The notes beneath the pieces were generated by a model. The model was not told the origin of the DNA. It saw only the letters and a list, made by a program, of their open reading frames with translations, and did no database searches. 64,000 nucleotides of DNA. It comes from Candidatus Kaelpia imicola. GTDB taxonomy: Bacteria; Omnitrophota; Gorgyraeia; Kaelpiales; Kaelpiaceae. Made by a program: the position numbers and the translations under genes. The stretch lies in the NCBI GenBank assembly GCA_030765505.1, contig JAVCCL010000026.1, positions 34,679 through 98,678 of the forward strand. Direction: 5' to 3'. This document shows, in pieces, positions 163 through 24,696 of this stretch (the first letter of the stretch is position 1; each line of letters begins with the position of its first letter).

Positions 163-936
163 ATGGAAAGAGAACTAATATTAAAGAACATAAAAAACCT
201 TAAAGAGTTAACCGTTCGTAATATACGTTTAAAATATGCCTCTACACTCTTAGGCGTAGCCTGGGCCGGTTTGATACCGCTTCTTCTTATGGGTGTGATA
301 GGCTTTGTTTTTATCAGAGTCTTTGGGGTCTCTAAGGAGAATTTCCATGTTTTTGTTCTTTCGGCTCTGATTCCCTGGCTCTATTTTTCCAACGTTATAG
401 TCGAATCTACAGAGGCATTTATGAGAGAAAAATCTATTATGAATCAGTTTGACTTTTCAAAGATCATCTATCCGCTATCCATTGTTCTTTCAAATACGGT
501 TGAGCATATAATAGCCATTCTCTTCCTATTGCCTGTATTTATCTTTTTTAATAAGGCCTTGATTTTTAAATTTCCATTACTGGTCTTACCGATTCTAATC
601 GCTGTAGTATTTGCAGCTGCATTATCTTTGATGGCGGCTATAGTAACTCTATATTTCAGAGATTTCCGGCATCTTCTTGGAGTTCTCTTAATGGCTCTCT
701 TCTGGCTTACCCCGGTTTTCTATTCGCCTTACATGGTTCCTGAGAATATAAGGTTCCTGATATTCTTAAATCCTTTAACATATTTTATCGAACTCTATAG
801 AGGTATATTTATTGCCGGCTACAACCCCTTTTTAAAGAATACATACCTCTATGTTTTAATAATAGGGGTTATCTCTGTTTTATTTGGATTCCTGTTATAC
901 AGAAAAACAGAGAGAGAGATATTGAAGAGGAATTAA
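163..936 (+). CDS. ABC-2 type transporter permease (Wzm/TagG/KpsM-like polysaccharide exporter)
   Basis: 257 aa with about six hydrophobic helices and an ABC-2 permease pattern. It sits immediately upstream of, and is start/stop coupled to, an ABC ATPase. Confidence 0.8.
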   Translation: MERELILKNIKNLKELTVRNIRLKYASTLLGVAWAGLIPLLLMGVIGFVFIRVFGVSKENFHVFVLSALIPWLYFSNVIVESTEAFMREKSIMNQFDFSKIIYPLSIVLSNTVEHIIAILFLLPVFIFFNKALIFKFPLLVLPILIAVVFAAALSLMAAIVTLYFRDFRHLLGVLLMALFWLTPVFYSPYMVPENIRFLIFLNPLTYFIELYRGIFIAGYNPFLKNTYLYVLIIGVISVLFGFLLYRKTEREILKRN

Positions 937-937
937 G

Positions 938-2827
938 ATGAGCGATACTATAGCAGCAATAAAGATGGAGGGGCTCTGTGAGTATTACAGGGTAAGGTTT
1001 TCCTATCCCGATAAGTCTGTTGATAGAGAGATAAAAGCTCTTGAGGATGTAAGCCTTGAAATCAAAAAAGGAGAGTCCGTAGCGCTGCTCGGCCCAAATG
1101 GGGCTGGAAAGACTACGTTGCTTAAGTCGATTGCGGGAATACTCAAGCCGGACTCTGGGACTATAAATGTGGAGGGTAGAGTGAGAGGTATCTTTGCTCT
1201 TGAGGCAGGATTTATCCCCGATCTTACAGGATATGAGAATCTTAAAATGGTACTCAAGCTTTATGAGATAGAGAATGAGGCTGTTCTAAGAAATATAGTT
1301 GAATTCTCTGAACTTGGAGATTTTATATATGCTCCTTTAAAGACTTATTCCCAGGGGATGTATCTACGTTTGGCATTCTCTCTGGCCATACATACAGATC
1401 CGGATATCTTGATAGTAGATGATATTCTAGCAGTCGGAGACTACCATTTTCAGCGGAAATGCGTAAAGAGAATAAAAGAGATTACAGACTCTGAAAAGAC
1501 AGTGATTATAGTGACCCATAATTTTGATTTAGCAGAACAGTTATGTTCAAAATGTATAGTTTTAGAGAAAGGTAAAATATTTGCAGAAGGTAATATAAGC
1601 GAGATGAGAAATATATTCTTTGAAATAGCAGGAGATCTCTGGGGCAGCGGTTATATCAAAAATAGAGATCTCAATGTCGTATTTAATAATGGGAAGATTA
1701 TCTTAAGATATAAAGGTACTCCTTTAACGGCTGATATGGGCGGTTTCTTGAGTTTTAGAAAAGATGGCGGTGTTCTCTATTCGACCGATTTTAAATGGGA
1801 CGTAAAAGAATACAAAGATAGATTGACGGCGTATGGGCTAAATAAAGAAGAGGAGATATGTAAGGTAGAGTTAGAGTTAAACCCTGAAGGTATAAACTAT
1901 ACTTTAGAGGGCAGATATCCAGAGCTTGAAATAAATTTTATGCTTAAAGATGTATATTTAGAAGCCCGGATGGATGATGATTCGATTGAGCTCCCTATAG
2001 TAGGAAGAGAACTTGCGAGAGAGTGGAAGAAGATAGCCGAGGCTAAGACAAACTATGTAAAACTGATACCCGAATCTGGCAAAGGATATCCCGAAGTATC
2101 TTTTATAGTTTACTCCGATAAAGAGGCAAAGATAGAGCTCTTCAACCATTATTTCAATACCTCTATGAGGATAGTACGGATTACAACATCTCAACCCCGC
2201 ATCAATATCTGCATGATATTGAATCCTGTTCAAAGAGGGGGAGCGGAAAATATCGACTTAAAAAGTAATGTAGTCTTAAAAGAGTTAATTAAGCTAATAA
2301 ACAGCAATCTGATGGAGCTGTGGAATATAGATACTCCTCTGTTAAAAGCGATTAACTTTATCTCTCATTTTCAAGAAGAGGTATTCGAAGATTTTAAATG
2401 CGAATTGTTAAATCAGTCAGATTTGTCAAATCTGCAAATGATAATAAAATTTTCTAAAATTGACGTCTCCCTGCTTTTGATAGTAAGCATAAACTCTTCG
2501 GGTTTAACTTTTAATTTTTCTTCTTTTACTCCCGGTGCTGCTGTCCATTTAACAGGTATAGGGTTTGTATTGGATTCAAGAGCAAAATACAGGTACTATA
2601 ATTCCGATATAATTGAAGGGGTGGTTGGAGAAGAGACCAGTGTACTGACAACGGACTCTCTGACGCTCTCTTCTTCAAAAGACAACATGCCGGAATTAAA
2701 ACTTACTTTAAACAACCCTACAAGTTTAGAGATTATAGAGGATTGGTATTATAAGAGTGCTACTAATTTAAATTTTTCGCCCCATTTAAGAGAGAATAGT
2801 TTTTCAATCAAAATAGCGGTATTATGA
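938..2827 (+). CDS. ABC transporter ATP-binding protein with ~400-aa C-terminal extension (Wzt/TagH-like)
   Basis: Walker A GPNGAGKTT, signature-like YSQGM, Walker B ILIVDD and H-loop VTHN in the first ~230 aa. The remaining ~400 aa is non-ATPase, as in O-antigen Wzt proteins whose C-terminal domain binds glycan caps. Confidence 0.85.
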   Translation: MSDTIAAIKMEGLCEYYRVRFSYPDKSVDREIKALEDVSLEIKKGESVALLGPNGAGKTTLLKSIAGILKPDSGTINVEGRVRGIFALEAGFIPDLTGYENLKMVLKLYEIENEAVLRNIVEFSELGDFIYAPLKTYSQGMYLRLAFSLAIHTDPDILIVDDILAVGDYHFQRKCVKRIKEITDSEKTVIIVTHNFDLAEQLCSKCIVLEKGKIFAEGNISEMRNIFFEIAGDLWGSGYIKNRDLNVVFNNGKIILRYKGTPLTADMGGFLSFRKDGGVLYSTDFKWDVKEYKDRLTAYGLNKEEEICKVELELNPEGINYTLEGRYPELEINFMLKDVYLEARMDDDSIELPIVGRELAREWKKIAEAKTNYVKLIPESGKGYPEVSFIVYSDKEAKIELFNHYFNTSMRIVRITTSQPRINICMILNPVQRGGAENIDLKSNVVLKELIKLINSNLMELWNIDTPLLKAINFISHFQEEVFEDFKCELLNQSDLSNLQMIIKFSKIDVSLLLIVSINSSGLTFNFSSFTPGAAVHLTGIGFVLDSRAKYRYYNSDIIEGVVGEETSVLTTDSLTLSSSKDNMPELKLTLNNPTSLEIIEDWYYKSATNLNFSPHLRENSFSIKIAVL

Positions 2828-3483
2828 AGAAGAACCATATAGAGAGAGATGGTATTAAACTGGAGTTTCTTTTAGGATATGCCGCCTTAAGCTATAGGAA
2901 TATTATACTAAGTAAAAGTTGTGGATTGTATTCCAGCATCTATCATAACAATACTTGGTATGATTCGCGCTTTGCAACATGGCAGATATTAGATTCAAAT
3001 AAGGAGAGTATATCTTTATACGGAGAGTGGGCAAATCTTCCTCACAGACAGAGCTGGGATTTTAAGTTCAAAGACGGTAAATTACATTGGACTCTAAGAT
3101 GGGAAAATTTGAGGGATTTAAGCTTAGATATGATCCAACAGAATTTTATGCTTATAGATGAATATACTGATTTTTTGGTCAAGGATTATGCTCAGGGTAA
3201 ATTTCCAGAATATTTCTCTAATTTTAAAGGCTTGCTTTGGGATAGAATCTGGTCTATGCCTCAACTGAAAGATAGCCAGATAACATTTAAATCGGCCAAT
3301 AGCTCTGTACCGAATTTAACCTGGATATCGGTTTTAACCAAAAAAGATACCTTATGTGTGATTGAGAATACAGGTTTTGAAGATTCAGCCAGAGTATTAC
3401 AATTACTTTTTGTAAATACAGAAGGCGGTCCAATCAAAGACAACTGTACCATATCGCTAGAGAGTGTGCTGAAAATTGATTAA
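2824..3483 (+). CDS. hypothetical protein
   Basis: 219-aa ORF. ATGA overlap with the upstream gene. No recognisable motif. Confidence 0.45.
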   Translation: MKKNHIERDGIKLEFLLGYAALSYRNIILSKSCGLYSSIYHNNTWYDSRFATWQILDSNKESISLYGEWANLPHRQSWDFKFKDGKLHWTLRWENLRDLSLDMIQQNFMLIDEYTDFLVKDYAQGKFPEYFSNFKGLLWDRIWSMPQLKDSQITFKSANSSVPNLTWISVLTKKDTLCVIENTGFEDSARVLQLLFVNTEGGPIKDNCTISLESVLKID

Positions 3484-4243
3484 GAGAGCCAAGCTTATTT
3501 TAAAAAAACTGCCATCTTTTTTAAAAGATAAGGGTATAATTATAACTTCTATTAAAATCTATGAGTATCTGCTCTTTAGAACTGCAGAGAGAAAAAAGAG
3601 AAAGGCAAAACCACTCTCAATCTTAAAAGATGATATTACGGTAATCACAAACTCAAAAGGTGTAAGTTTAATAGCAGGGGGAAGATTTATCACAAATAAT
3701 GTCGGGTTCCATAGCGCTATTAAAAATCTGGAAAAATGGCACGATTCAACACAGGCCGAATTTAAGTTTATAAAAAGAGCAGGTTCTCTTATTATCAAAG
3801 AGTGGTGGTGGAATCTGCCTCTTAAGTATAAATGGGTCTTTACTCTTAAAGAGAGAAGTATTCTTTGGAAAGGCTCGCTCATAGTCGAGAACTATATTAT
3901 GATTGAAGTGATAAAAACTGGTTTAATTGTTAATAATATTTATGACAGTCTGGTTCTGGGTAAGAAGAGTCTGGACTTACCTGAAAAGAGCCTTCAATGG
4001 CAGGAGATGGATAGGATCGGGAAAAGAACTCTCTTGACTCTAGGCGTTAAAGATAACCCTCTCAGCTTCCCGGATTTGAAATTCAAGATAATCAACTCGC
4101 TCTATCCCTGTAAGATGATAGTACAGAATACAGATAATTATCTTAACGGTAGGTTGCTGCAGATGATCATGGAAGATGAGAGAGAGTACAGGTCGGGCGA
4201 ATATGAGCTTTTTGAGTTGGAGATTTCGGTTATTAAGAAATGA
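3476..4243 (+). CDS. hypothetical protein (TTG start; possibly 3' part of a frameshifted gene with 2824..3483)
   Basis: 255-aa open frame with no in-frame ATG near its 5' end. Only a TTG at 3476 overlaps the previous stop. It is in a different frame from the upstream ORF. Confidence 0.4.
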   Translation: MIKRAKLILKKLPSFLKDKGIIITSIKIYEYLLFRTAERKKRKAKPLSILKDDITVITNSKGVSLIAGGRFITNNVGFHSAIKNLEKWHDSTQAEFKFIKRAGSLIIKEWWWNLPLKYKWVFTLKERSILWKGSLIVENYIMIEVIKTGLIVNNIYDSLVLGKKSLDLPEKSLQWQEMDRIGKRTLLTLGVKDNPLSFPDLKFKIINSLYPCKMIVQNTDNYLNGRLLQMIMEDEREYRSGEYELFELEISVIKK

Positions 4244-7200
4244 AAGTAGCGCTTCTAAATATGCCTTGGAAATGTCACGGACTCTGGGGGGTAAGAGCGG
4301 GTTCACGCTGGCCTCATCTAAGAGATCCAAATAATGAAAGAGATTATCTGCCTTATCCTTTTTTCTTGGGTTATGCAGCGGCATTATTAAAAAAGAATGG
4401 ATTCAGTGCGGTTCTCATAGATGCAATAGCAGAACAGATAGAGATGCCTGATTTCATAAGGGCTCTTGAGGAGGAGAGACCTGATCTGATAGTTGCCGAG
4501 ACATCAACTCCCTCTTTAGATTACGACCTCTCTCTTGCTCAAAGAATAAGAGATATCGCCCCTATTGCATTCTGCGGTCCGGAACAGAACATAAGAGATG
4601 TAGATTTTTTAAAGGAAAGAGATTTTATCGACTATGTCTTAATCGGCGAATATGAAAATATACTTCTCAGCCTGGCTTCTGCTTTAAGAGATAGGAGGCC
4701 GCTCTCTAAAGTAAAAGGTATAATTTATAGAGAGAACGGCAGAATAGTTAAAAACGGCCAGGCTGACTTAATAAAAGAATTAGATACCCTTCCCTGGCCT
4801 CAGAGAGAAGGTCTTTTTATGGAGCATTATGTCGATGCTCCCGGCGGTATGCCTCTACCGTCTGCCCAGATGTGGACATCGCGAGGCTGCCCCTTTAAAT
4901 GTATATTCTGTCTCTGGCCTCACATAATGTATCACGGTAATACTTACCGAATACGGGATATTTTCAATGTGGTAGATGAGATGGAGTATCTTATAAAAGA
5001 GAGATGTTTCAAATCCATATATATTGATGATGATACTGCAAACGTGAATAAAAAGTTTTTGATGGGAATTGCGGCTGAGATCAAAAGAAGGAAGTTGAAA
5101 TTCCCCTGGGCTATCATGGCCAGGCCAGACCTTATGGATAGAGAGTTACTCTTTAGTTTGCGCCAGGCAGGGTTATATAGCGTAAAATATGGGGTTGAGT
5201 CATCTTCTCAGAGGCTTATTAAAAACGCCAATAAGAATATGGATTTAAAATACGCGCTTAAGATGATCAGGCTAACCCACTCTTTGGGCATAAAGACACA
5301 TCTTACCTTCACTTTTGGACTACCTGGGGAGACAAAGAAGACAATAGAGAGGACGATAGACCTGGCTTGTGAACTAAACCCTTACTCGGTTCAGTTCTCT
5401 CTGACTACGCCATTCCCCGGGACAAGTTATTTTAAAAGTCTTAAAGAGAAGGGCTGGATTGAGCCGGATGATTGGAGTTCTTTTGACGGACATAAAGCCT
5501 CTATTGTAAATCTTACCGGTCTTAAGTCAGAGGAGCTGGAAAGGTCTCTGTTTAAGGCCTATAGAGTGTGGAATCAGAGTAAGAGAGACTCTCTGCTTAA
5601 GAAAACTAAAATCGAAGAGATAAAGTCATTTTGGAACTACCTCAATCTCTATGGTGTTAAATTTGCATTACAGAAAAAATCTTCTTACCTGCATGTAAAA
5701 CAGCAATTAAAGGCTGAAGAAGGCAGCAGACAACAGCAAGCCGAGAATAATGCTGTATTGAAAGGTATCTTGAGCGGCCATACCACTTATAGCGGTCCCA
5801 AAATAGCAGTTATAGATATAACCAATAAATGTAATTTAAACTGTATAGGCTGCTGGCTCTATTCACCCTATCTAAAAGGAGTAAAGAGAGAGAGATTAGA
5901 AGAAGAGCTGGATTTAAATACCATAAAAGATGTTGTTGATGAGCTCCATAAGGGAGGGGTAGAGGAGATACAGATCTCAGGCGGCGGAGAACCGCTGATT
6001 CACCCTGATCTTTTAAAAATCGTTAAATATATAAAGATAAAGAAGATACGCTTACACCTTGTGACTAACTTTACTCTCTTCAACAAAAAACTCATAGATG
6101 AACTCTTTAAACTCCGGATAGACTATATTACTATCAGTCTCTGGGCAGGAGATGCAAAGACCTACCTTAAGACACATCCAGGTTCAAAGCCTGATATGTT
6201 TGAGAAGATAGCCGTAAACATAGAATATTTGCTTAAGAGAAGAGAGGAGGATAGACCGATTGTCAAAATATATAATGTGATATCCAAGGTAAACTATCGT
6301 AACATTCCTCAAATGCTGGATTTTGCATTAGATAGAGGGGTAGACTATCTTGAGTTTCAGTTGATGGAGCCAATAGAAGGCAAGACAGAGCATCTGGTTG
6401 TTACAAAGAAAGAGGCTCTTGATATTAATGAGATGCTTATTCGGTTTAAAGATCGCAAAGATTATGTACCGGATTTTATATCAAATGAAGATCTTGAAGT
6501 TTTTGAGTTGTCTTCACATAAAAACGAGCTTAAGGATTTTGGTAGATTTTTAAAGAAGTTCAGAAAGGGGTTCAACCTCACTAACGGCATAAGGCTGGCA
6601 AGATGCCCTGACGGAAAGTACAGCGAAAAGAGAGTACCTTATCCGCCAAAAGATGTAAGACATATAAACTATTATTTTAATCGGGATATATGCAGAGGGT
6701 GCAAGCTGCATCAAAAATGCTATAAGGAGAATAGCGAGACACCGCTTGAAGTAGATCTTTTGACGGTTTTAGGAATTGAGACTTTTCTGAGGCGTGTAGA
6801 TTCAATATCCAAAGAACGCTTAAATTTAGATGGGGAGTTCGTAGATTCGCTGCCCTGTTATGTAGGATGGTATTTTACAAGGATAACCACCAGCGGTGAT
6901 GTTAAACCCTGCTGCAAGGCGGAGGATATAGTGCTTGGCAATATTAAAGAGAGCCGTTTTCAGGATATATTCTCATCCAGCTCTTACAATAGGTTCCGTT
7001 ATAACTGCAAGAATCTCTCTAAAAAAGAGGACTATTTCTCAACTATAGATTGCTACAGAGTCTGCGATAATCTCGGAATGAACCTAAATACCCATAGAGA
7101 GATATTGGATAATATTAGACTCAGAGACTATAGTTCTTCGGATGTTAAATACCATAAGAGAAGCATTGTAATACCGGCTAAAAGTTTTAAGTACGGTAAT

Positions 7201-9993
7201 CTCAATAGAGATAACAACTCTTTTGGTGATGAGATAGTTGTAGATGGAGGAGCTGGTTTTGGGTATGCAGAGTACAGTATAGAGATTTCAACTCCCGGAT
7301 TTTATGAACTCTATATTAGATATGCTTCCGAGATACCAAGACCTGTTGAGCTCAGGATAGACAATGAGTATCTTGGTAAAATCGCAAAAGCTACGACAGG
7401 CGGCTGGGAGAGAAAGTATCTTAAATATTCTAAAGAACTGGAGCATTATTTTGATGCAGGAATTCATAAGATAGAGATATACTCTTCTCTCTATATCCCG
7501 CACATAGAGAGATTTGAACTGAGAGTTAAAAACAGAGAGAGAGAGCTGCCTCTCTGTGACCCGTCAACGCTCTATGGTAAAAAAGCCCCCTTAGAAATAA
7601 TAAAGGAATCATTTAAAACGCATGGAGCAAGACTAACTTTAAAGAGAATTTTAAAATTCTTAAAACCCGGCAATCTTATCAGCAGCTACCTGGATATTAT
7701 AGGCATATTTGACTCAAAATATGCCTATAAGGGCCCTTTTCATGTCCAGATAGATCTGACCAACAACTGTAATAATGATTGTATAGGGTGCTGGTGTAAT
7801 TCACCTCTCCTGGAGGAGCAGAGAATGCCCTCTGAATTAAAAAAACAGTATATACCTTTCAATACTCTCAAAGGTGTTTTAAATGAGGTAAAAGAGGTGG
7901 GTGCAAAAGAGGTCTATTATTCCGGCGGCGGAGAGCCTTTCATGCATCCTGAGATAATGGAAGTCTTAGAATATACAAAAAGGTTGGGATTGATCTGTTA
8001 TGTAAACACAAATTTTACACTGCTTGACAAGAATAAGATTGATCGCCTGATAGCAATTGGAGTCGACCATCTGACAGTAAGTATTTGGGCTGGGAGTGCA
8101 GAGACTTACTCCGATACTCATCCTAATAAGAGCAAAGAGATATTCTATAAAATAAAAGAGAATCTGATATACCTTAACCGCAATAAGAATAGAGCTCCGC
8201 TGATAAAGCTTTATGAGGTAATATTCAACCTTAATTATCACGAGATAAAAGAGATGATCGATTTTGCGCGCAGCAGCTGCTGTGAATCCGTTGAATTTAC
8301 TCTTATAGATACTATCCCGGGTAAGACCGGCAGACTCTCTTTAAATAAGAGGGAGAGAGAAGAGCTTTACAGTAATTGCAGCGAAATATCCAAAGAGTTA
8401 GCTCCTAACTTCAATTACAGAGGAGTTCACCTCTTCAGGTTTGATCAGTTCATGAGAAGATTGAGCGAAGATGAAGCTGTTAGAGAGGCAAAGTATGACA
8501 GGAATATCATTGACTCAATGCCTTGCTATATCGGCTGGCTCTTTGCCCGAATACTTCCGGATGGCAATATCAACACCTGCTTGAAATCGCACAGGTTTCC
8601 TGTGGGTAATATCTACGAGGGGAGCTTCCGTGAAATCTGGAATTCACCCAGACAGATATACTGCAGAGAGAAGATGCTTTGCTATGAGAAAAAGGATCCT
8701 TTCTTTAAGATTATCGGTAATGATCCAGACATAGAAGAGGCAGGATGTTATAAGAGCTGCGATGATATAGGGCGTAATCTTCACATGCATAAGAAGATTA
8801 TGTCCTTAACAAAGCTGGAAAGATTAGTCTTGAGATTAATAGCCAAATATAAGAAGAAGAGCAGGATAAAAAGGAGAGACGGCCTTAAGGAGCTGAGTCA
8901 AGTTCAGATGGAAGATAAGGTAAGAGCAGGTATTATAACCTCCAGGAAGGCTTTTCAGGGGCCGGAGCATATTGTTATGGATTTAACCAACAGGTGTCAG
9001 TTGAGGTGTAACGGCTGCTGGCTCTACTCTCCTCTTCTTAAGACAAACAAGCCTTCGTCAGAATGGTTAAATAAGGAGATCCCGCTATATAGCGCTAAAA
9101 GCTTCATAAGAGAAGCAATAGCTATGGGGCTTAAGATAATACGTTTTACAGGCGGAGGAGAACCTCTGCTTTATAAAGGGGTCTTTGAATTGATTGAGAT
9201 AGCCAAGTCAAACGGTGTTAAGACCTGTCTTACGAGCAATTTTTACGGTTTAGATAAAGAGAGAGTGAAAAGGCTTGCAGATTTAAATCTGGATGAACTT
9301 GCTTTGAGTATCTGGGCCCCGGACCCCCAGACTTACGCTCTGCTGCATCCCGGGACAGAGAGAGAAGATTTTCTTAAGATAAAAGAGGGTATAGCCCTCT
9401 TTAACTCTATTAAGGCTAAAGATACCAAGGTTACAATAGCGAATGTCATTAGCAGCCAGAATTTTAAGAAGATAAAAGAGATGGTCGATTTTGCTTTAGA
9501 GACAAGGTCGGATGCTCTATATTTCACTCTCGTAGATACATTTAAGGGGGAGACCGATACCCTGCTTTTAAAAGAAGATCAGCTTGTGCAATTGAATTCT
9601 GATCTTAAAAGTATTCTCTCCTCTCTTAAAGATAATAGAATAGAGATAGAGAACCTTAATGGTTTTATTGAAAGGCTGAATTCAAATAATAGATTTGGTA
9701 ATTACGACAGAGAGAGGATCGATAGAGTTTCATGCTATGTCGGCTGGTATTTTCTGCGCATCTTGGCGGATGGTTCCGCTGTTCCATGCTGCAGGGGGGT
9801 AGATTATATTATGGGTAATATCAACATTTCATCGCTCTCTGATATCTGGTATTCCAGAAAGTATGATGGTTTTAGGCATAGAGCAAAGAATTTCAAAAAA
9901 GACCATCCTTTCTTTATGAAGATGGACTGCTATAAAGAGTGTGATAATTTTATGCATAACGAACAAGTCCATGAAAGAGTAAGCCGAAAATAG
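4240..9993 (+). CDS. giant multi-domain radical SAM protein: N-terminal B12-binding rSAM plus three tandem SPASM/twitch-type rSAM modules with embedded CBM-like domain
   Basis: 1917 aa. Four CxxxCxxC motifs at nt 4888-4911 (SRGCPFKCIFC), 5830-5853 (NKCNLNCIGC), 7768-7791 (NNCNNDCIGC) and 8995-9018 (NRCQLRCNGC). Each of the last three is followed by GGGEP and a Cys-rich CY(V/I)GW(Y/L)F...CC...CYxxC tail (nt 6856-7069, 8524-8763, 9733-9942). The N-terminus resembles cobalamin-binding domains of class B rSAMs. Residues ~990-1098 (nt ~7207-7533) carry a YxLxIRYAS...TGGW...IHKIEIY pattern, which is CBM6/35-like. Confidence 0.85.
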   Translation: MKVALLNMPWKCHGLWGVRAGSRWPHLRDPNNERDYLPYPFFLGYAAALLKKNGFSAVLIDAIAEQIEMPDFIRALEEERPDLIVAETSTPSLDYDLSLAQRIRDIAPIAFCGPEQNIRDVDFLKERDFIDYVLIGEYENILLSLASALRDRRPLSKVKGIIYRENGRIVKNGQADLIKELDTLPWPQREGLFMEHYVDAPGGMPLPSAQMWTSRGCPFKCIFCLWPHIMYHGNTYRIRDIFNVVDEMEYLIKERCFKSIYIDDDTANVNKKFLMGIAAEIKRRKLKFPWAIMARPDLMDRELLFSLRQAGLYSVKYGVESSSQRLIKNANKNMDLKYALKMIRLTHSLGIKTHLTFTFGLPGETKKTIERTIDLACELNPYSVQFSLTTPFPGTSYFKSLKEKGWIEPDDWSSFDGHKASIVNLTGLKSEELERSLFKAYRVWNQSKRDSLLKKTKIEEIKSFWNYLNLYGVKFALQKKSSYLHVKQQLKAEEGSRQQQAENNAVLKGILSGHTTYSGPKIAVIDITNKCNLNCIGCWLYSPYLKGVKRERLEEELDLNTIKDVVDELHKGGVEEIQISGGGEPLIHPDLLKIVKYIKIKKIRLHLVTNFTLFNKKLIDELFKLRIDYITISLWAGDAKTYLKTHPGSKPDMFEKIAVNIEYLLKRREEDRPIVKIYNVISKVNYRNIPQMLDFALDRGVDYLEFQLMEPIEGKTEHLVVTKKEALDINEMLIRFKDRKDYVPDFISNEDLEVFELSSHKNELKDFGRFLKKFRKGFNLTNGIRLARCPDGKYSEKRVPYPPKDVRHINYYFNRDICRGCKLHQKCYKENSETPLEVDLLTVLGIETFLRRVDSISKERLNLDGEFVDSLPCYVGWYFTRITTSGDVKPCCKAEDIVLGNIKESRFQDIFSSSSYNRFRYNCKNLSKKEDYFSTIDCYRVCDNLGMNLNTHREILDNIRLRDYSSSDVKYHKRSIVIPAKSFKYGNLNRDNNSFGDEIVVDGGAGFGYAEYSIEISTPGFYELYIRYASEIPRPVELRIDNEYLGKIAKATTGGWERKYLKYSKELEHYFDAGIHKIEIYSSLYIPHIERFELRVKNRERELPLCDPSTLYGKKAPLEIIKESFKTHGARLTLKRILKFLKPGNLISSYLDIIGIFDSKYAYKGPFHVQIDLTNNCNNDCIGCWCNSPLLEEQRMPSELKKQYIPFNTLKGVLNEVKEVGAKEVYYSGGGEPFMHPEIMEVLEYTKRLGLICYVNTNFTLLDKNKIDRLIAIGVDHLTVSIWAGSAETYSDTHPNKSKEIFYKIKENLIYLNRNKNRAPLIKLYEVIFNLNYHEIKEMIDFARSSCCESVEFTLIDTIPGKTGRLSLNKREREELYSNCSEISKELAPNFNYRGVHLFRFDQFMRRLSEDEAVREAKYDRNIIDSMPCYIGWLFARILPDGNINTCLKSHRFPVGNIYEGSFREIWNSPRQIYCREKMLCYEKKDPFFKIIGNDPDIEEAGCYKSCDDIGRNLHMHKKIMSLTKLERLVLRLIAKYKKKSRIKRRDGLKELSQVQMEDKVRAGIITSRKAFQGPEHIVMDLTNRCQLRCNGCWLYSPLLKTNKPSSEWLNKEIPLYSAKSFIREAIAMGLKIIRFTGGGEPLLYKGVFELIEIAKSNGVKTCLTSNFYGLDKERVKRLADLNLDELALSIWAPDPQTYALLHPGTEREDFLKIKEGIALFNSIKAKDTKVTIANVISSQNFKKIKEMVDFALETRSDALYFTLVDTFKGETDTLLLKEDQLVQLNSDLKSILSSLKDNRIEIENLNGFIERLNSNNRFGNYDRERIDRVSCYVGWYFLRILADGSAVPCCRGVDYIMGNINISSLSDIWYSRKYDGFRHRAKNFKKDHPFFMKMDCYKECDNFMHNEQVHERVSRK

Positions 9994-12900
9994 ATGGAGA
10001 CAGCTATTTTTCCTAATTATCTCATGGTTCAAACAGTTGCAGGCTGTAATGCTAGCTGTTATTTCTGCCCCTACCCCTATCTTAAAGGCAGGATAAAATC
10101 TCAAAAGATGGACTTTAAAATCTTCAGAAAAATAATCGATGAGTGTAAAGACTATAAGGATTTGAAAGTGGTGATGCCTTACCTAATGAACGAGCCCCTG
10201 CTTGATAGAGAGATAGATAAGAAGATAGTCTATATCAAAAAGAGGTTGCCCTGGAGCTCAGCTCATATCTTAACCAACGGCAGCCTTCTGGATGAAGATA
10301 TGAGTCTTAAGCTTATTGGGAGCGGTATAGATTGGGTTGGGTTTAGCCTGCACGGAATAACCGAAAATACTATCAAGAAGACTATGGGCTTGGATTTAGA
10401 GAGAGTCTTGGATAATATATCGAACTTTATAAAAATTGCCCAGAGAGATAGAAAAGATATAGCCGATTTTATAATGCTCACTCTCATAAAAAATGAGAGA
10501 TTATCAGAAAAGGAGCTTGAAGATGCAGTCAGTTTTTGGAAGAGAAAAGGCATTAAAAGAATAAGCAGATACTCTCACCCTATATCTAGAGCTGGCAATG
10601 TACCTCTGCTGAATAAAGTAAGAAATGAGAGACTGTATGGTTGTAACTCTATCTGGGCCGATAAGATGATCCATATTCTTTCAAATGGAGATGTAGTCCT
10701 CTGCTGCATGGATTGGAAGAGAGAGGCTCTGCTGGGTAATATTGAAAAAGATTCTCTCTATGATATCTGGCACTCAAAAAAATATAATAATTTAAGAAGT
10801 CAGATAGACGGGGAGACGGCGGCAGAGAAAGAACTGATATGCCTTAGGTGTGAATGCGCCCAGTCAGAACCCAGGAGAGAGAATAAGAAGATAACCTTGA
10901 TCATTCCTCCACCCTGGGGTGTTGAGAGGCCCCCTGTTGGTTTAGCTGTAATAGCCGAGGTATTAAGAGCATCTGGTTATAGGGTAAGAGTCATGGACTT
11001 AAATCTTAAGATTCATAACTCTGTAGATGAGGATGATAGAAAGTATTGGGGGATGGACTGCTCCCTTTACTTTAGAGATAAAAGATTCATCGACTCTCTA
11101 ATGGAGAAGTATGCTGATCTCTTCTCTGAAATAGAGGATGATTTTAAGAGCGACGATTCAGGTATAGCTGCATTCTCGGTACCTACAAATTCAATGTATC
11201 TAATGCTGAAGTGGATGATTGAGAAGATAAAATATAACCAATCTCGGAAGAAAATTATACTAGGGGGGATTTCGGTTACAGTAAAAGAGCAGAGAGACGA
11301 GCTTTTTGAGATTCTAGGCAATCTTAACTTGATAGATGCGGTAGTTCTTGGAGAAGGCGAAGATACCATTTTAAAGCTTGTTCATAAGTTATCCGGCAAC
11401 AGGTCTATAGTCGATGTCAAAAACACCGTTATAGTTCAAGACGGCAATTTTATAGAGACAGAACCCGGAAAGATAGAGAGCTTAGACAGAATCCCTTTTC
11501 CTAAATATGAAGGGTTTTTGCTTAAAGAGTATACAAAGAGTAACAGCATCTCTTTAGAGCTCTCCCGGGGCTGCATAGGCAGATGTAGTTTCTGCAGCTT
11601 TAAGATCTTAAGCTCTTCTTACAAAAGAAAATCTCCTAAAAGAGTAATAGCTGAGCTTAAGTATTATAAAAAAGAGTTAAAAAAAGAGTATTTCTCTATC
11701 GTGGACTCATCGATAAATGCTGATTTAAAATGGCTGGAAAGATTATCTGAACTGATAATAAAAGAGGATCTTAAGATAAAGCTTACAGCCCTTGCAATAC
11801 CGCGGGGAGATATGAACATGGGGCTGCTTAAAAAGATGAAGAGGGCAGGTTTCTATAGATTAGAGTATGGAGTAGAGAGCGGCTCCAGCAGAATACTTAA
11901 GCTTATGGGTAAGACGTTCTTGGCAGAAGACGCAAAAAGGGCTCTCTCTTTGACGAAGAGAGCAAATATAAAAAACGTACTCTACTTTATTGTCGGGTTT
12001 CCAACCGAGAGCAATGATGATTTTCAGAAGACACTTGATTTTATAGAATCGAATAAGACGAACATAGATTATGTTAAATCTGTAAATCCTCTCTTCCTGA
12101 TGGCCGGCTCAGAGATATTTGCAAACCCTGAAAAGTTTAATATCAGACTGCCTAACGAAAGTCCTGATATCAAATGGTTCATAGAAGGGGAGAATGATTT
12201 TGATCTTAGAATGGAGCGGGTTAAAAGAGTACATAGGCTTTTAAGAGAGTTAAACATCTCTTATACCACTGAAGCAACGGCTTTACCGGATGAAGAGAGT
12301 AAGGTCAAGAAGAAGGATATAGCTCTTGTTACAACAGCTCCCTGGGGCATCAATAATCCGCCTCTGGCGCTTGGATATCTGGCAGACTATCTTAGAAAAC
12401 ATAACTATGACCCCGCTGTATTTGATTTTAATATTGAATTTTACAACTCTATAGATAAAGAGTTGCAGCATCTCTGGCATGTTGAGAACAAGAACTTCTG
12501 GAGAGACAAAGAATGGTTTGATATTATCCTGAAGATCTTTGACAAAGATATAGATTTGGCCGTAAACAGAATAATAGAGAGCGGTGCTGAAGTCATAGGG
12601 TTCTCTGTGGTAGATCCTAAAGAACGGCTGACAATAGAATTTATAAAGAGAATAAAGGCAAAGGATAGCTCAAAAAAGATCATCTTGGGCGGCCCTGCTA
12701 CATTGACGGCACATTCAAGAAATATTTTTATAGATAACATCGCAGAGCATATAGATTTTTTTGTCGTTGGGGAAGGAGAGGAGACGCTCCTTGAGATAAT
12801 GAAAGACGGGAATTGCAAGGATATTTCTGGAGCAATAAGGATGGTTAATGATAAACCAACTGCATTAAAAGAGAGAGCGGTAATAAAAGATTTAAATAGT

Positions 12901-13929
12901 ATACCATACCCCGGCTATAGAGATTTTGATCTGAGTCTCTATCCGGGTGAGTCTCTTATTCTGGAGTGGTCCCGGGGCTGTATAGGAAGTTGTGCTTTCT
13001 GTATTAATCATGAGCTTATAAAAGGCTACCGTTCACGTTCTGCAGAGCATATCTTTGAAGAGTTAAGATATCACACGGATGTTAACGGTATAAGTAACTT
13101 TACTATCTGCGATCCGCTCTTAAATGGAAGCCCTCAAATTTTAGAGCGGCTTTGCGATAAGATCATAGAGAGTGGACTTAAAATAGAGTGGACAGGTGAG
13201 GTTATGCCTAGAAAGGATATGGAAATATCTACTCTTAAAAGGATGAGAGAGGCGGGGTGTGTTAAGCTTCAGGTTGGACTGGAGAGCGGTTCTGATAAAG
13301 TCTTAAAGAGGATGCGTAAGTTATACAACGTTAAGACAGCTGAAGATTTCTTGAGAAAAGCATCTCTTGCAGGTATGGAGACAGAACTTTTTGTCATGAT
13401 AGGTTTTCCATCTGAAGATGAGATTGAATTTCAGAAAACAGCAGATTTCTTTAGACGTAACAAAGAGTATATTAACACTATCAAATCGATAAATACTCTT
13501 CACCTTATAGCAGGTACGGATCTATATAAAAATTACTCTAAATTTAAAATAAAGCCTTTACCCGACGACAACTGGCACTATCTCTGGGAGACCGAAGACG
13601 GCAACAGTTATCCTTTAAGGAGAGAGAGGGGTGAGTCTCTTCTAAGGTTGGCAGAAGAGCTGGGTTTTAAAGTTATGGAGACAAACCTAGAGGAGGGTAA
13701 GCAGCAGAGAGAGAATAATGTCGATATCTCTAGGCTAGAGGTTCTTGTAAACAGAATTCAGTCTCTTCCTCGGGAGAGAAGAGATTTATCAGGTGAGGTT
13801 TTAATTCCAAGAAAGCGAATCTTAAAACTGCCTTACCTGGTTTTGATAGTTGTTCTAACTTTGGCAGCAGAGGTATATCTTTGGTTCTTGAGAAAAGCAA
13901 GGAGAATGATAATCTTTCCCGGAAGTTAA
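9994..13929 (+). CDS. giant tri-domain radical SAM protein: SPASM-type rSAM plus two B12-binding rSAM modules, C-terminal TM anchor
   Basis: 1311 aa. CxxxCxxC motifs at nt 10045-10068 (AGCNASCYFC), 11572-11595 (RGCIGRCSFC) and 12979-13002 (RGCIGSCAFC). There is a Cys-rich CCMDW...CLRCEC tail after module 1. B12-binding-like segments IIPPPWGVERPPVGLAVIAE and TTAPWGINNPPLALGYLADY precede modules 2 and 3. A hydrophobic helix LPYLVLIVVLTLAAEVYLWFL sits near the C-terminus. The start codon abuts the stop of the upstream mega-ORF. Confidence 0.85.
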   Translation: METAIFPNYLMVQTVAGCNASCYFCPYPYLKGRIKSQKMDFKIFRKIIDECKDYKDLKVVMPYLMNEPLLDREIDKKIVYIKKRLPWSSAHILTNGSLLDEDMSLKLIGSGIDWVGFSLHGITENTIKKTMGLDLERVLDNISNFIKIAQRDRKDIADFIMLTLIKNERLSEKELEDAVSFWKRKGIKRISRYSHPISRAGNVPLLNKVRNERLYGCNSIWADKMIHILSNGDVVLCCMDWKREALLGNIEKDSLYDIWHSKKYNNLRSQIDGETAAEKELICLRCECAQSEPRRENKKITLIIPPPWGVERPPVGLAVIAEVLRASGYRVRVMDLNLKIHNSVDEDDRKYWGMDCSLYFRDKRFIDSLMEKYADLFSEIEDDFKSDDSGIAAFSVPTNSMYLMLKWMIEKIKYNQSRKKIILGGISVTVKEQRDELFEILGNLNLIDAVVLGEGEDTILKLVHKLSGNRSIVDVKNTVIVQDGNFIETEPGKIESLDRIPFPKYEGFLLKEYTKSNSISLELSRGCIGRCSFCSFKILSSSYKRKSPKRVIAELKYYKKELKKEYFSIVDSSINADLKWLERLSELIIKEDLKIKLTALAIPRGDMNMGLLKKMKRAGFYRLEYGVESGSSRILKLMGKTFLAEDAKRALSLTKRANIKNVLYFIVGFPTESNDDFQKTLDFIESNKTNIDYVKSVNPLFLMAGSEIFANPEKFNIRLPNESPDIKWFIEGENDFDLRMERVKRVHRLLRELNISYTTEATALPDEESKVKKKDIALVTTAPWGINNPPLALGYLADYLRKHNYDPAVFDFNIEFYNSIDKELQHLWHVENKNFWRDKEWFDIILKIFDKDIDLAVNRIIESGAEVIGFSVVDPKERLTIEFIKRIKAKDSSKKIILGGPATLTAHSRNIFIDNIAEHIDFFVVGEGEETLLEIMKDGNCKDISGAIRMVNDKPTALKERAVIKDLNSIPYPGYRDFDLSLYPGESLILEWSRGCIGSCAFCINHELIKGYRSRSAEHIFEELRYHTDVNGISNFTICDPLLNGSPQILERLCDKIIESGLKIEWTGEVMPRKDMEISTLKRMREAGCVKLQVGLESGSDKVLKRMRKLYNVKTAEDFLRKASLAGMETELFVMIGFPSEDEIEFQKTADFFRRNKEYINTIKSINTLHLIAGTDLYKNYSKFKIKPLPDDNWHYLWETEDGNSYPLRRERGESLLRLAEELGFKVMETNLEEGKQQRENNVDISRLEVLVNRIQSLPRERRDLSGEVLIPRKRILKLPYLVLIVVLTLAAEVYLWFLRKARRMIIFPGS

Positions 13930-13932
13930 TAT

Positions 13933-15114
13933 ATGAAGATATTGATGCTGCATCCACATGACATCTTTCATTTAAGTGAGCCTTGGACGATAAGGATAAA
14001 ATCTATAGCTAAAGAGTTCAAGAGAGAAGGTCATGAAGTAAGAATAGCCTATTTCCCGCTTAACCATAAAAGTCTCAGGAATTCGCTCTTTAACTATAGC
14101 GGTATTGATATAATAACCTTGGACAGAAGAAGAGGTCTGGGGGTATTCTTTAAAAATATCAAAAGACTTATAAAAGAGGTTGAATGGGCAGATATCGTCC
14201 ATTTTCAAAAATGTTTTCACTACTGCTCTATTCCCGCTGTAATAGCAGCTTGGATAAAAAATAAACCTTTACATTATGATTGGGATGACTGGGAGACAAA
14301 AATATATTTTTACGGAAAACCGGCCTCTCCAGTTATAGGACTGTATATCTGGATGCTTGAAAGAGCGTTGCCGAAGTTTGTAGACTCTATCTCCCTCTCC
14401 AGCAGAAGGCTTGCCCAGCTCGCAACGGATAACTACGGTATATCCAAAAAGAGGATTACAGCTGCTCCTGTAGGTGCGGATTCAGATGAGTTCAAACCTG
14501 AGAATAGAGGAGAAGAGATAAGGAGAGAGTATCGCATCAATGGACCCATAGTCTTATACCTTGGTCAATTACACGGCGCCCAATATGCTGAACTGCTGAT
14601 TCATGCTGCAAAGATTGTTATCCAGTGGCATCCGACAACAATGTTCTTTATTGTCGGAGGGGGCTATAGGTTGGAAGAGCTCAAAAAGACGGCAAGAGAG
14701 TTCGGGCTCTCAGATAGGATCATATTTACCGGCTCTCTTCCTCATAGTCAGATGAGGAGATATACAGCAGCAGCCGATGTCTGTGTAGGCTGCTTCGCCA
14801 GAAATGATATTACAATGTGTAAGAGTCCTTTAAAACTTGCCGAATATCTCGCATCAGGCAAGGCTATAGTTGCAAGCAATGTGGGTGAGGTTAGAAATAT
14901 GGTCGGAGGAGTCGGTGTATTAGTAGAACCCGGCAATCATATTATCTTAGCAGGCGGAATAAGCGAACTTCTCTCTAGGCCGGATCTAAGAGCAAAGATG
15001 GGTGTCCTGGCAAGAAGAAGAGCGCTTGAAAGATATAACTGGAGCTGGAGCGCAGAGAACATTATGAGCATATACAGAAGAGTTCTTAAGGGTTATGAGC
15101 TTAAAAGATTATGA
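13933..15114 (+). CDS. glycosyltransferase family 1 (GT4-like)
   Basis: 393 aa with a GT-B architecture pattern. The C-terminal region (GSLPHS...EPGNHIILAGGISELL...) is typical of group 1 glycosyltransferases. Confidence 0.8.
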   Translation: MKILMLHPHDIFHLSEPWTIRIKSIAKEFKREGHEVRIAYFPLNHKSLRNSLFNYSGIDIITLDRRRGLGVFFKNIKRLIKEVEWADIVHFQKCFHYCSIPAVIAAWIKNKPLHYDWDDWETKIYFYGKPASPVIGLYIWMLERALPKFVDSISLSSRRLAQLATDNYGISKKRITAAPVGADSDEFKPENRGEEIRREYRINGPIVLYLGQLHGAQYAELLIHAAKIVIQWHPTTMFFIVGGGYRLEELKKTAREFGLSDRIIFTGSLPHSQMRRYTAAADVCVGCFARNDITMCKSPLKLAEYLASGKAIVASNVGEVRNMVGGVGVLVEPGNHIILAGGISELLSRPDLRAKMGVLARRRALERYNWSWSAENIMSIYRRVLKGYELKRL

Positions 15115-16192
15115 GCTGGTATTTATAACAAGAGAACCCCCTGAGCTTTCCGGAGCAAAGTACAGAGCTTATAATTTCACAAAGATATTAAAAGAGAGCG
15201 GGTATAGAGCCGAGGTTATATCCTACTCTGCAGACCTTGGAGCTTATTCGGGTATCTTAGAGCAGTATCTCTCAATAGCTGATAAGATAGGCTATAATTT
15301 AAAAGCCTATCTTAAGTTCAGGCAATACAAGAATCCTGTTTTTATAATTCAGCGCTTTAATTATCACTCTCTGGCTCCGCTATTGTTCTGTCTTAAAAAC
15401 AGGATAAAATTCGTATATGATATAGATGATTGGGAGTTTAGGGAGAATATCGATTATTTTAAAGGTCTATTTCCAAGATCAAAAGCAGAGTTTCTGTTCA
15501 GAAAGACAGCAAAGAGAGCGGCTCTCTGTATAAGCGGAAGCCATTATCTGCAAAACTATATAATTACCATTACACCAAAAAGCTATTACCTTGCTCCGGG
15601 AATAGATACTGAATTATTTAAACCTGAAATGGAGAAGGCTGCTTTAGCCAAAACTTTAGCCTGGGTGGGAACAATGTTCAGAGAGGAGGATTACATCAAT
15701 TTAAAGTATCTCTTCAAGATAATGAAAAATTTACCTCATCTTACACTTGAGGTAGTAGGAGACGGTCATTATAAGAATAAGATTGCAGCAGAGTCCAAGA
15801 GACTAGAGCTTAAAAATATCGTCTTTAGAGGCTGGATGGAGAGTTCCAGAATCCCTGAGTATCTCGAAAATATAAGCTTGGGATTATTTCCTCTTAAGGT
15901 GAAGAACAGATTTACAGAGGCTAAGTTTCCGGTAAAAGTACTGGAGTTTATGAGTAAAGGTATACCTACTGTTGCAACATCATTTGGTGAGGTTAAAAAT
16001 ATAATCAAAGATGGAGAGAACGGCTTACTTGCTGAAGATGAGAATGATTTTAAAGATAAGATAGAGATGGTATTAGAAGATAGCAGGTTATATTCCCGGA
16101 TCTCAAAATCGGCTAGGGAGAGTGTGATAGCAAACTATTCTGACCGCAGGCAGACTCAGAAGCTGATATCAATATTGGATAGAGAGCTATGA
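15095..16192 (+). CDS. glycosyltransferase family 1 (GT4-like)
   Basis: 365 aa. Carries a C-terminal EX7E-type motif region (FGEVKNIIKDGENGLLAEDEND) typical of retaining GT-B enzymes. Confidence 0.75.
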   Translation: MSLKDYELVFITREPPELSGAKYRAYNFTKILKESGYRAEVISYSADLGAYSGILEQYLSIADKIGYNLKAYLKFRQYKNPVFIIQRFNYHSLAPLLFCLKNRIKFVYDIDDWEFRENIDYFKGLFPRSKAEFLFRKTAKRAALCISGSHYLQNYIITITPKSYYLAPGIDTELFKPEMEKAALAKTLAWVGTMFREEDYINLKYLFKIMKNLPHLTLEVVGDGHYKNKIAAESKRLELKNIVFRGWMESSRIPEYLENISLGLFPLKVKNRFTEAKFPVKVLEFMSKGIPTVATSFGEVKNIIKDGENGLLAEDENDFKDKIEMVLEDSRLYSRISKSARESVIANYSDRRQTQKLISILDREL

Positions 16193-17661
16193 ATAAAAAG
16201 GTAGTTCTTATGAACTCTGTAGGTAAGGATGATATCGGACGCTTTATCATACACTCTCCTTCCAGGTGGTCTGAGGGTGTGGAGAGACTATCATCCTGGT
16301 TCTGTTATTATCCATGGGAGCTTGCTTATGCAACTGCCTTACTTAAGAAGAAGACCTCCTATAAAATCAAGCTCATAGATCCCTGCCTCGGGAGGTGGGA
16401 TAAAGAAGAGACTCTGAGCAATATCTTAGAAGAAGAGCCGGACTGGTTGATAGTAGAGAGTGCTACGCGGACAATATCTGAGAATCTCTGGGTCGGAAAG
16501 AACATAAAGAGAATAACTCAGACTAAGATAGTATTCGTTGGCCAACATGCTACTGCTTTTCCTCAAGACCTTATCTCCAGAGGTGTAGATTATGCGGCTA
16601 TCGGAGAGTATGAAGAGACATTACTTGAGTTGTTGGTAACCGAAGATAGTTCTATAGCCGGACTCTATCCAAATCAACGCAGGCCGTTAGTAGATATAAC
16701 AAAATTACCCTGGCCGGAAGATAGAGATCTAAAGAGAATCGAATATGGCAGCCCTGGCGAACCAAGTTCAGAATATCTTGAGATTCAGGCCTATGCCAGC
16801 CGCGGCTGCTACAGAGACTGTCCTTTCTGTGTCGCAAGAAACGTATATTACAACCAATCTAAGCAGAGATTTCGTAAGGTAGCTGATATTATATCTGAAA
16901 TAGAGTATCTAAAAAACAGCTATCCCCGGCTTGAGGGTATTTTTTTTGATGAAGAGTCTCATAACTCAAGCAAAGATTTTATCAGGGAATTAACATCAGC
17001 AATTATAAGTTCAGGATTGAATAGTTTAAAATACGAAGCTATGTGCGACCTGAGATTCCTGGATAGAGAGAGCATGGATTGTATGAAAAGAGCAGGATAT
17101 TACAAGGTTCGTTTCGGAATAGAGACGGCTTCTGAAGAGTTGGCCTTATCAATAGCCAAGCCTATCTCAGTTGATAAAACTCTCTCCACTTTAAGTTATG
17201 CTAAAGAGATAGGGCTAAAGACCTATACTACTTTTATGTTTGGTTTACCTGGTTCAAACGTTAAAAGGGATGGTCAGACAATAGATTTCATCTCCCGTAT
17301 CATAAAACAGGATTTAGTAGATAACATACAGATATCTCTGGCTACACCTCAACCGGGTACCCCTTTCTATAATTGGGCAAAAGAGAGAGACTTTATTACA
17401 GATAACGATCCTCACTCTTTTGACGGAGGAGGACCAGCTATTTTAAACTATCCCGATTATGGAAAAGAAGAGATAGAAGAATTATTGAAAATGGCTGTTA
17501 TAAAAAGAGACCACCTCTTCTTTATGAATAATCTCAGAAAGCATCCCTTTGGTTTTATAGTTAAACGTTACAAGCGTTACGGTTTGAAGTTGTTGATAGA
17601 GAAACTGTTAAGGCGTATTAAAACAGAGCTGCTTTACTTAAAGCTCTCCAAGAGAAGGTAA
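16189..17661 (+). CDS. B12-binding domain radical SAM protein
   Basis: 490 aa. The N-terminus is paralogous to the start of the 4240 gene (SRWS...YPWELAYATALLKKK...KLID). CxxxCxxC lies at nt 16806-16830 (RGCYRDCPFC). Confidence 0.85.
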   Translation: MNKKVVLMNSVGKDDIGRFIIHSPSRWSEGVERLSSWFCYYPWELAYATALLKKKTSYKIKLIDPCLGRWDKEETLSNILEEEPDWLIVESATRTISENLWVGKNIKRITQTKIVFVGQHATAFPQDLISRGVDYAAIGEYEETLLELLVTEDSSIAGLYPNQRRPLVDITKLPWPEDRDLKRIEYGSPGEPSSEYLEIQAYASRGCYRDCPFCVARNVYYNQSKQRFRKVADIISEIEYLKNSYPRLEGIFFDEESHNSSKDFIRELTSAIISSGLNSLKYEAMCDLRFLDRESMDCMKRAGYYKVRFGIETASEELALSIAKPISVDKTLSTLSYAKEIGLKTYTTFMFGLPGSNVKRDGQTIDFISRIIKQDLVDNIQISLATPQPGTPFYNWAKERDFITDNDPHSFDGGGPAILNYPDYGKEEIEELLKMAVIKRDHLFFMNNLRKHPFGFIVKRYKRYGLKLLIEKLLRRIKTELLYLKLSKRR

Positions 17662-17664
17662 TCT

Positions 17665-24228: not shown

Positions 24229-24696
24229 ATGGTTATCGATCAACAGGTAAGGAGGTTGTTGTTACTCATGAAAAGTGAAAAAACTAAAGCAATAGCAGCG
24301 GCTGATTTTTTATATCGGCTGCAATATACAATTAATCAGCCGATAGAGAATATGCAGACAGATAATGGAAGTGAGTTTACCTGGCATTTTGACCGAACAG
24401 CAGATAGATTGAAAATAGATAGATATTTTTCCAGAGTTAAAACACCGAAAGATAACCCTGAAGCTGAGAGATTTAATCAAACTCTAAAATATGAGTGGTT
24501 ATATGATAACAATTTAGATTTAGATTGTGATAGATTTAATAGAGAGTTAACTGAATGGCTGATAGAATACAATTTCAACAGACCTCATGAAACTCTTGAT
24601 TACTTGACTCCTATGGAGCATATAGAAAACGAGTTGACTAAAATTAGAAGCCCTGTCAAAGTGTTACCTATGTGGTCAGCCAGAACATATTCTTGA
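24229..24696 (+). mobile_element. DDE transposase/integrase (rve-type) C-terminal fragment; IS remnant
   Basis: The 155-aa product contains TDNGSEF...PKDNPEAERFNQTLKYEW...YNFNRPHETLDYLTPME. This matches the C-terminal half of an IS3/IS481-type integrase catalytic core. The N-terminal HTH and the first catalytic D are absent, so it is truncated and non-functional. Confidence 0.7.

Follow-up and report, generated by a model that had tools for sequence, protein, structure and literature searches.

The 64,000-nucleotide stretch of contig JAVCCL010000026.1 analyzed in this work, called the window hereafter, belongs to Candidatus Kaelpia imicola, an Omnitrophota metagenome-assembled genome (MAG). 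The Candidatus Kaelpia MAG comes from the anoxic Ace Lake and was inferred to be an obligate fermenter (PMC8542988). Nucleotides 163-19445 of the window contain a set of genes that overlap or abut each other, with the order Wzm, Wzt, X, X, radical SAM, radical SAM, GT4, GT4, radical SAM, GT2, where X is a domain described below, SAM is S-adenosylmethionine, and GT indicates a glycosyltransferase family. The first of the radical SAM genes codes for a large protein composed of four radical SAM modules, and between modules 2 and 3 it includes the element that is the subject of this report, a folded beta-jelly-roll module of about 125 amino acids that is a member of an unclassified branch of the CBM6/CBM35 group of carbohydrate-binding modules (CBM).

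Pfam analysis of the host protein identified four Radical_SAM domains, three SPASM domains, and a B12-binding domain, and CX3CX2C motifs are present at amino acids 217, 531, 1177, and 1586. The CBM-like domain is found after the SPASM end of module 2, at about amino acid 945, and before module 3. This end and the positions of the CX3CX2C motifs bear out the location between modules 2 and 3 that had been proposed in an earlier note, made from the sequence of the window. The amino acid sequence quoted in that note is the exact translation of nucleotides 7207-7533 in frame with the host open reading frame (ORF). Of the boundaries assigned at that time, the end is exact but the start is 54 nucleotides late, the true start being nucleotide 7153; a domain starting at 7207 would lack strand 1 (SIVIP) and the conserved loop residues A980, G986, N987, and N989. 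A hydropathy scan of the host protein detected no transmembrane-like or signal-like segment, and because of this result and of its Fe-S chemistry the protein is probably cytoplasmic.

When 1.84 billion representative proteins were searched exhaustively with HMMER, 349 relatives of the domain were identified at E<=1e-3, of which 34 were at E<=1e-10, and the match always spanned amino acids 972-1098. When the profile of a family alignment of 58 sequences (A1) was compared with the PDB, it matched the CBM35 modules 2W47 and 2W1W with E=2.5e-10 and 2VZP with E=3.7e-10; the match to the solved CBM6 structure 1UXZ was marginal (E=0.057). The motifs RYA...RP and TGGW of the domain align with the same motifs in the CBM35 structures 2W47 and 2VZP, in agreement with the earlier designation of a pattern containing RYA and TGGW as a CBM hallmark. 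An AlphaFold2 (AF2) model generated from the same alignment is an eight-strand beta-sandwich with a mean predicted local distance difference test score (pLDDT) of 95.5 and a predicted template modeling score (pTM) of 0.88. The best 50 matches of this model in a Foldseek comparison with the PDB were all CBM35, CBM6, or CBM36 modules with template modeling (TM) scores of 0.62-0.79; the top one was 2W1W (E=2.4e-8, TM 0.74), and the CBM35 matches 2W1W, 2VZP, 2W47, and 2W46 had a probability of 1.00 and TM scores of 0.68-0.75. Pfam scans of the 58 members of the alignment detected CBM_6 in 17 (best E=3.6e-8) and CBM_35 (PF16990) in 10 (best E=2e-5). The CBM6/CBM35-type identity claimed before was thus recovered by the profile search and by structure prediction, both of which could have failed to return a CBM or galactose-binding-like fold, and the fold and the superfamily membership of the domain can be considered secure. 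Word-indexed searches with the domain, or with an alignment of its radical SAM subfamily, retrieved no relatives, which is a sensitivity miss given the 349 found by the exhaustive search. A word-indexed protein search also retrieved neither the complete host protein nor relatives of the domain; hypA, from the same MAG, was present in it at 100% identity, and the host protein may be missing or truncated in that database or may have been overlooked by the index.

In the CBM35/6 ligand site a Trp of region A stacks on the sugar, a basic Arg is located near region E, and an Asn of region C, invariant and critical in CBM6/35, forms the base of the site; a structural Ca2+ is held by a Glu-x-Glu in strand 1 and an Asp two residues past region C (PMC9843283). 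The site of the glucuronate-bound CBM35 consists of Trp, Arg, Ca2+, Tyr, and Asn (PMC12464755). A census of 95 full-length copies from three unrelated architectures (19 radical SAM proteins, 29 planctomycete PSCyt/PSD1 proteins, and 47 others) showed that R1034-P1035, W1056, P1087-H1088, Y1028-A1029, and G986-N987 are near-invariant, and these residues map onto regions A and C and the basic Arg of the CBM35/6 ligand site (PMC9843283; PMC12464755). Residue W1056, which is part of the TGGW motif, is aligned to the Trp of the TGAW/TGTW motifs of 2W47 and 2VZP, and this position is occupied by Trp in 79 of the 95 copies and by another aromatic amino acid in 14 more. The region C motif of the family is PHI(D/E), as opposed to PN(V/I)D in CBM6/35, and its His lies opposite N122, in the PNVD motif of 2W1W, in 76 out of 96 pairwise alignments. 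In the alignment of the query to 2W1W (hmmalign, free-end global) the C-terminal strand is misaligned, and the correspondence of H1088 rests on motif equivalence; the equivalence of Asn and His is based on the motif correspondence, on the 76 family alignments just mentioned, and on the Ala135/Asp137 spacing (PMC9843283). The three positions of the structural Ca ligands are variable in the radical SAM-linked subgroup, whereas the PSCyt-type copies keep E, E, and D in 26-28 out of 29. Signatures peculiar to the radical SAM subgroup are N989, F995, and D1002-G-G. With respect to the conservation of the Ca- and sugar-binding residues, a point raised in the earlier note, the Trp and the Arg have been kept, but the Asn is a His and the structural Ca ligands have been lost. 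The domain is part of a distinct CBM6/35 branch with His in place of Asn, for which Pfam has no model.

Of the best 150 relatives, 20 are radical SAM proteins and these hold 14 of the top 15 ranks. Other members of this group are fusions to GT4 (P0022 is an example), to GT-C (PMT_2), to an MGH1-like/GH63-like glycoside hydrolase, and to an arylsulfotransferase. The location of the domain within the proteins is variable, since it can be N-terminal, internal, C-terminal, or in tandem. Its identity to the counterpart in the orthologue from locus L001 is 77%, compared to 79-89% for the catalytic modules, and the respective values for P0001, a 1927-amino acid protein with the same architecture, are 52% and 57-69%. 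In the PSCyt-type copies (P0006, P0016, P0024, and others) the His-variant domain is found between PSCyt2 (DUF1549) and PSD1 (DUF1553); these copies are often in tandem, have intact Ca ligands, and belong to cytochrome-domain proteins of the planctomycete type.

The coordinates of the domain, its host, and the surrounding genes are shown in Table 1. The Wzt-like ATPase has a 389-amino acid C-terminal extension that carries one copy of domain X at amino acids 239-422, and comparison of this extension with Pfam did not match any family, Wzt_C included. The nearest NCBIfam families of the putative transporter are glycopolymer exporters, with scores well under the curated cutoffs, and genes for GT4, GT4, and GT2 glycosyltransferases follow, which is consistent with the Wzm/Wzt and glycosyltransferase context described in the earlier note. 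Peptide maturases are among the best NCBIfam matches. The panB gene overlaps the GT2 gene.

Table 1. Features of the window related to the CBM-like domain (coordinates in nucleotides)
Feature	Coordinates	Strand	Basis or remarks
ABC-2 permease	163-936	+	Best matches galactan Wzm/RfbD (8.7e-15) and KpsM; under curated cutoffs
Wzt/TagH-like ABC ATPase, 629 aa	938-2827	+	TagH 6e-47, galactan Wzt 3.5e-44; under curated cutoffs
hypA, free-standing domain X	2824-3483	+	100% identical to a Candidatus Kaelpia imicola hypothetical protein
hypB, paralogous domain X (aa 48-254)	3476-4243	+	
Host ORF, four-module radical SAM protein, 1917 aa	4240-9993	+	Pfam
Module 1, B12-binding radical SAM	4240-5619	+	Nearest named family HpnJ, score under HpnJ cutoff
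Module 2, radical SAM/SPASM	5752-7134	+	Pfam and CX3CX2C
CBM35/CBM6-like beta-sandwich, aa 972-1098	7153-7533	+	Family HMM (hidden Markov model) match E=1.4e-43
Residue R1034	7339-7341		Key residue
Residue W1056	7405-7407		Key residue
Residue H1088	7501-7503		Key residue
Module 3, radical SAM/SPASM, directly downstream of CBM-like domain	7717-8709	+	CX3CX2C motif
Module 4, radical SAM/SPASM	8932-9990	+	Pfam and CX3CX2C
Second multi-module radical SAM protein, 1311 aa, one SPASM-type and two B12-type modules	9994-13929	+	
GT4 glycosyltransferase GT4a	13933-15114	+	
Second GT4 glycosyltransferase	15095-16192	+	
Stand-alone B12-binding radical SAM protein	16189-17661	+	
GT2 glycosyltransferase	17665-18600	+	

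In a comparative scan in which each GTDB species was represented by a single genome, 45 loci were retrieved, most of them from Omnitrophota and others from Wallbacteria, Cloacimonadota, Desulfatiglandales, Myxococcota, and Thermoanaerobaculia; two metagenome scans added only one further locus, L046. The cluster is conserved across phyla and, besides Omnitrophota, extends to at least five lineages. The CBM-like domain is found in radical SAM proteins of L001-L004, as a tandem in L003, and at the C-terminus of the GT4a orthologue in L008 and L011. In L016 and L019 GT4a is in turn joined to the module 3 orthologue (query amino acids 1150-1531, E=2.5e-135), and in L020 (18395-20950) the module 1 orthologue forms a single polypeptide with a GT2. 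Since the domain adjoins module 3 in the window, and in other loci GT4a is joined either to the domain or to module 3, the domain, module 3, and GT4a may act on one glycan-containing substrate; this pattern of fusions is the strongest available evidence for such an association. Single polypeptides combining a glycosyltransferase and a radical SAM enzyme were observed in MAGs of Wallbacteria, Desulfatiglandales, and Kofleriaceae, an architecture that, to our knowledge, has not been described before.

The second accessory domain of the cluster, domain X, has about 200 amino acids and is present as paralogous copies in hypA, hypB, and the Wzt extension. It is also found outside the window in L005-L014, L025, and L026. 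Among the related loci it can be triplicated on Wzt, present in two copies at the N-terminal end of large radical SAM proteins, or located at the C-terminus of a B12-radical SAM protein, a position that in P0010 is occupied by the CBM-like domain. Comparison of domain X with Pfam, NCBIfam, and the sequences of the PDB yielded no match. The AF2 model of hypA (pLDDT 91.9) was matched by Foldseek to the galactose-mutarotase-like supersandwich of aldose epimerases and of the N-terminal domains of GH36, GH94, and GH116, as well as to the YidC P1 domain. The galactose-mutarotase-like fold is typical of sugar enzymes. Substrate recognition through a carbohydrate-binding domain of Wzt is well established (PMC13018209). 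Because the predicted fold is of the sugar-enzyme type and carbohydrate-binding domains of Wzt proteins are known, the presence of domain X on Wzt lends independent support to a glycan as the substrate of the system.

Taken with the gene fusions that join the domain, the radical SAM modules, and the glycosyltransferases, these observations suggest an enzyme system by which a sugar polymer or glycolipid is modified ahead of its export, and a glycan substrate can be inferred on the grounds of such fusions. The explanation that we favor, and hold to be probable although well short of established, is that the domain is a cytoplasmic module that tethers a glycan for tailoring and export. A nascent glycan or glycolipid, probably lipid-linked, would be made by the adjacent GT4, GT4, and GT2 enzymes, and the module would bind a sugar of this product at the cytoplasmic face of the membrane. 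The ligand would be accommodated in the canonical loop site, with W1056 stacking on it, R1034, and the invariant H1088 in the place of the Asn. Tethering would then hold the glycan beside the radical SAM sites, giving the four active sites repeated access to it during tailoring; module 1 is of the B12 type and its nearest named family is the sugar-acting HpnJ (score under the cutoff), and the other three modules are of the SPASM type. The tailored product would be finally exported by the Wzm/Wzt-type ABC transporter.

Several observations weigh against this explanation. Peptide maturation is the role for which SPASM radical SAM enzymes are best known. The region C Asn has been replaced by His in 91 of the 95 copies, the query has P979-A-K981 and E1090 in place of the Glu-x-Glu and Asp Ca ligands, and the assignment of residues to the ligand site was done by sequence alignment. 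Twenty-nine of the best 150 relatives belong to planctomycete PSCyt/PSD1 proteins, which are without known sugar function. The Pfam scan of the query alone did not match the CBM_6 or CBM_35 models, the latter even at E<=10. Furthermore, the CBM-like domain is absent from the orthologous clusters L005-L007, L009, L010, L012, and L014, and because so many orthologous clusters lack it, the domain is an accessory to the cluster.

Some of these observations would be better accommodated by other explanations. That the resemblance to CBM6/35 is a chance match of motifs, there being no such domain, retains a negligible probability. It would agree with the weak scores of the single sequence, for which the only Pfam match was Endotoxin_C (E=0.059) and phmmer comparison with the PDB gave E=0.14 for a xanthan lyase CBM and E=0.22-1.3 for CBM35 modules, but the family profile (E=2.5e-10), the 349 homologues, the confidence of the model (pLDDT 95.5), and fold matches exclusively to CBM35/6/36 are incompatible with it, and it was refuted by the profile search, the AF2 model, and Foldseek. 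The absence of the domain from the seven orthologous clusters just mentioned, along with its variable position, would be expected if it were a structural spacer or relic between modules 2 and 3 that binds no ligand. We regard this as quite improbable: surface and loop residues that are dispensable for the fold (N987, N989, D1002-G-G, R1034, W1056, and H1088) are near-invariant in the 95 copies, enzymes belonging to one and the same cluster have acquired the domain on repeated, independent occasions, and, because the identity of the domain between orthologues is on a par with that of the catalytic modules, the evidence argues against a decaying spacer. The alternative that the CBM35 fold was re-purposed for a ligand other than a sugar is less easily dismissed, yet still unlikely. 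Such a ligand could be a peptide or protein, as in ribosomally synthesized and post-translationally modified peptide (RiPP) systems, a partner enzyme in a multi-radical SAM assembly, or a metal or cofactor bound through the His. This would account for the change of the invariant Asn to His, for the loss of the structural Ca site in the radical SAM subgroup, and for the frequency of the family in PSCyt/PSD1 cytochrome-domain proteins, and it would be in line with the classical role of SPASM enzymes in maturing peptides and with the peptide maturases among the NCBIfam matches. Atypical modes of binding are known for CBM6/35-like folds without the signature residues (PMC9843283). On the other hand, the stacking Trp and the Arg have been kept, the enzymes found in direct fusion are glycosyltransferases and one that resembles glycoside hydrolases, the predicted exporter is of the kind that transports glycopolymers, and the overlapping genes of the operon leave no space for a precursor-peptide gene. 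Because of the lack of a precursor-sized gap and the glycosyltransferase fusion partners, the RiPP version of this alternative ranks low.

The closest characterized relatives of the domain are the members of the CBM35 uronate-binding clade, Rhe-CBM35 from C. thermocellum (2W1W/2W47) and Chi-CBM35 from A. orientalis CsxA (2VZP/2VZQ), with which it shares the beta-jelly-roll (TM 0.71-0.75), the similarity at the level of the family profile (E=2.5e-10), and the motifs Y-x-L-x-x-RYA...RP and TG-x-W, in which the stacking Trp and the basic Arg of the site are found. It differs from them in the invariant His (PHI[E/D] as compared to PN[V/I]D), in the loss of the structural Ca ligands, in that there is no evidence of a Ca at the ligand site, in that the Pfam CBM_35 model gives no score on the query, and in its host, a cytoplasmic radical SAM enzyme instead of a secreted glycoside hydrolase, esterase, or lyase. 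The CBM6 modules CmCBM6-2 (1UXZ), Aga16B-CBM6 (2CDP), and ZgLamC-CBM6 (5FUI) have the same fold (Foldseek E of about 1e-7, TM 0.72-0.75), but the profile similarity to solved CBM6 structures is only marginal and the Asn is changed to His. From the functional point of view, the domain resembles the C-terminal domain of O-antigen Wzt, also a cytoplasmic beta-sandwich attached to the biosynthesis and export machinery, and like it would recognize the nascent lipid-linked glycan prior to export (PMC13018209); however, the fold families are different and the host is an enzyme rather than a transporter. The Wzt extension of the window carries a third fold, the mutarotase-like domain X. RiPP recognition elements (RREs) are winged-helix domains that bind leader peptides. 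Like the RREs of radical SAM/SPASM peptide maturases, the CBM-like domain would be a non-catalytic accessory recruiter of substrate that varies in position and is encoded separately in some cases, but it is a CBM-type beta-sandwich in a glycosyltransferase cluster with no visible precursor peptide.

Full-text literature searches uncovered no report of a CBM attached to a radical SAM enzyme and none of this cluster. While the fold and the superfamily are already known, the His-for-Asn branch, the cytoplasmic radical SAM host, and the swapping with glycosyltransferases within one conserved cluster are new. If the glycan-tethering explanation is correct, the CBM35-like domain would take the CBM6/35 superfamily into cytoplasmic biosynthesis through a branch that is missed by current Pfam models. 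Radical SAM/SPASM enzymes of unknown substrate are very numerous, and work on them is usually held up by the search for the substrate; a conserved module of the sugar-binding type that is fused interchangeably to radical SAM modules and a glycosyltransferase is a testable handle on the substrate, and the isolated 125-amino acid module could serve as a probe to capture the glycan. A more ambitious proposal, which we put forward tentatively and consider possible rather than probable, is that Kaelpia-type clusters make a new class of radical SAM-tailored, ABC-exported glycan or glycolipid, for which the His-variant CBM35-like domain and domain X recruit the substrate to radical SAM enzymes, a glycosyltransferase, and the Wzt ATPase; the two domains would then be the carbohydrate counterpart of the RREs. 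The cluster is widespread among the Omnitrophota, whose members are known almost entirely from metagenomes, and may specify an unusual cell-surface polymer.

The number of radical SAM modules reaches about seven in the cluster of the window and exceeds ten tandem paralogues in related Omnitrophota loci. In L006, L010, L014, and L026, downstream of the match (at about 11-21 kb of the locus coordinates), 6-10 or more radical SAM paralogues, each of about 330-370 amino acids, follow one another in a tandem expansion of unusual size. Within the host protein, module 2 contains an additional stretch of about 110 amino acids (amino acids 733-842; 6436-6765 in the window) that is absent from modules 3 and 4. 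This insert is Cys-rich (CPDGK...CRGCKLHQKC) and could be an additional metal or Fe-S site; in Pfam it produced just a weak, spurious match to DDE_Tnp_1_6. A few kb downstream of the cluster, nucleotides 24229-24696 of the window include a 155-amino acid ORF with an integrase core (rve_3), which is probably a remnant of an insertion sequence or transposase.

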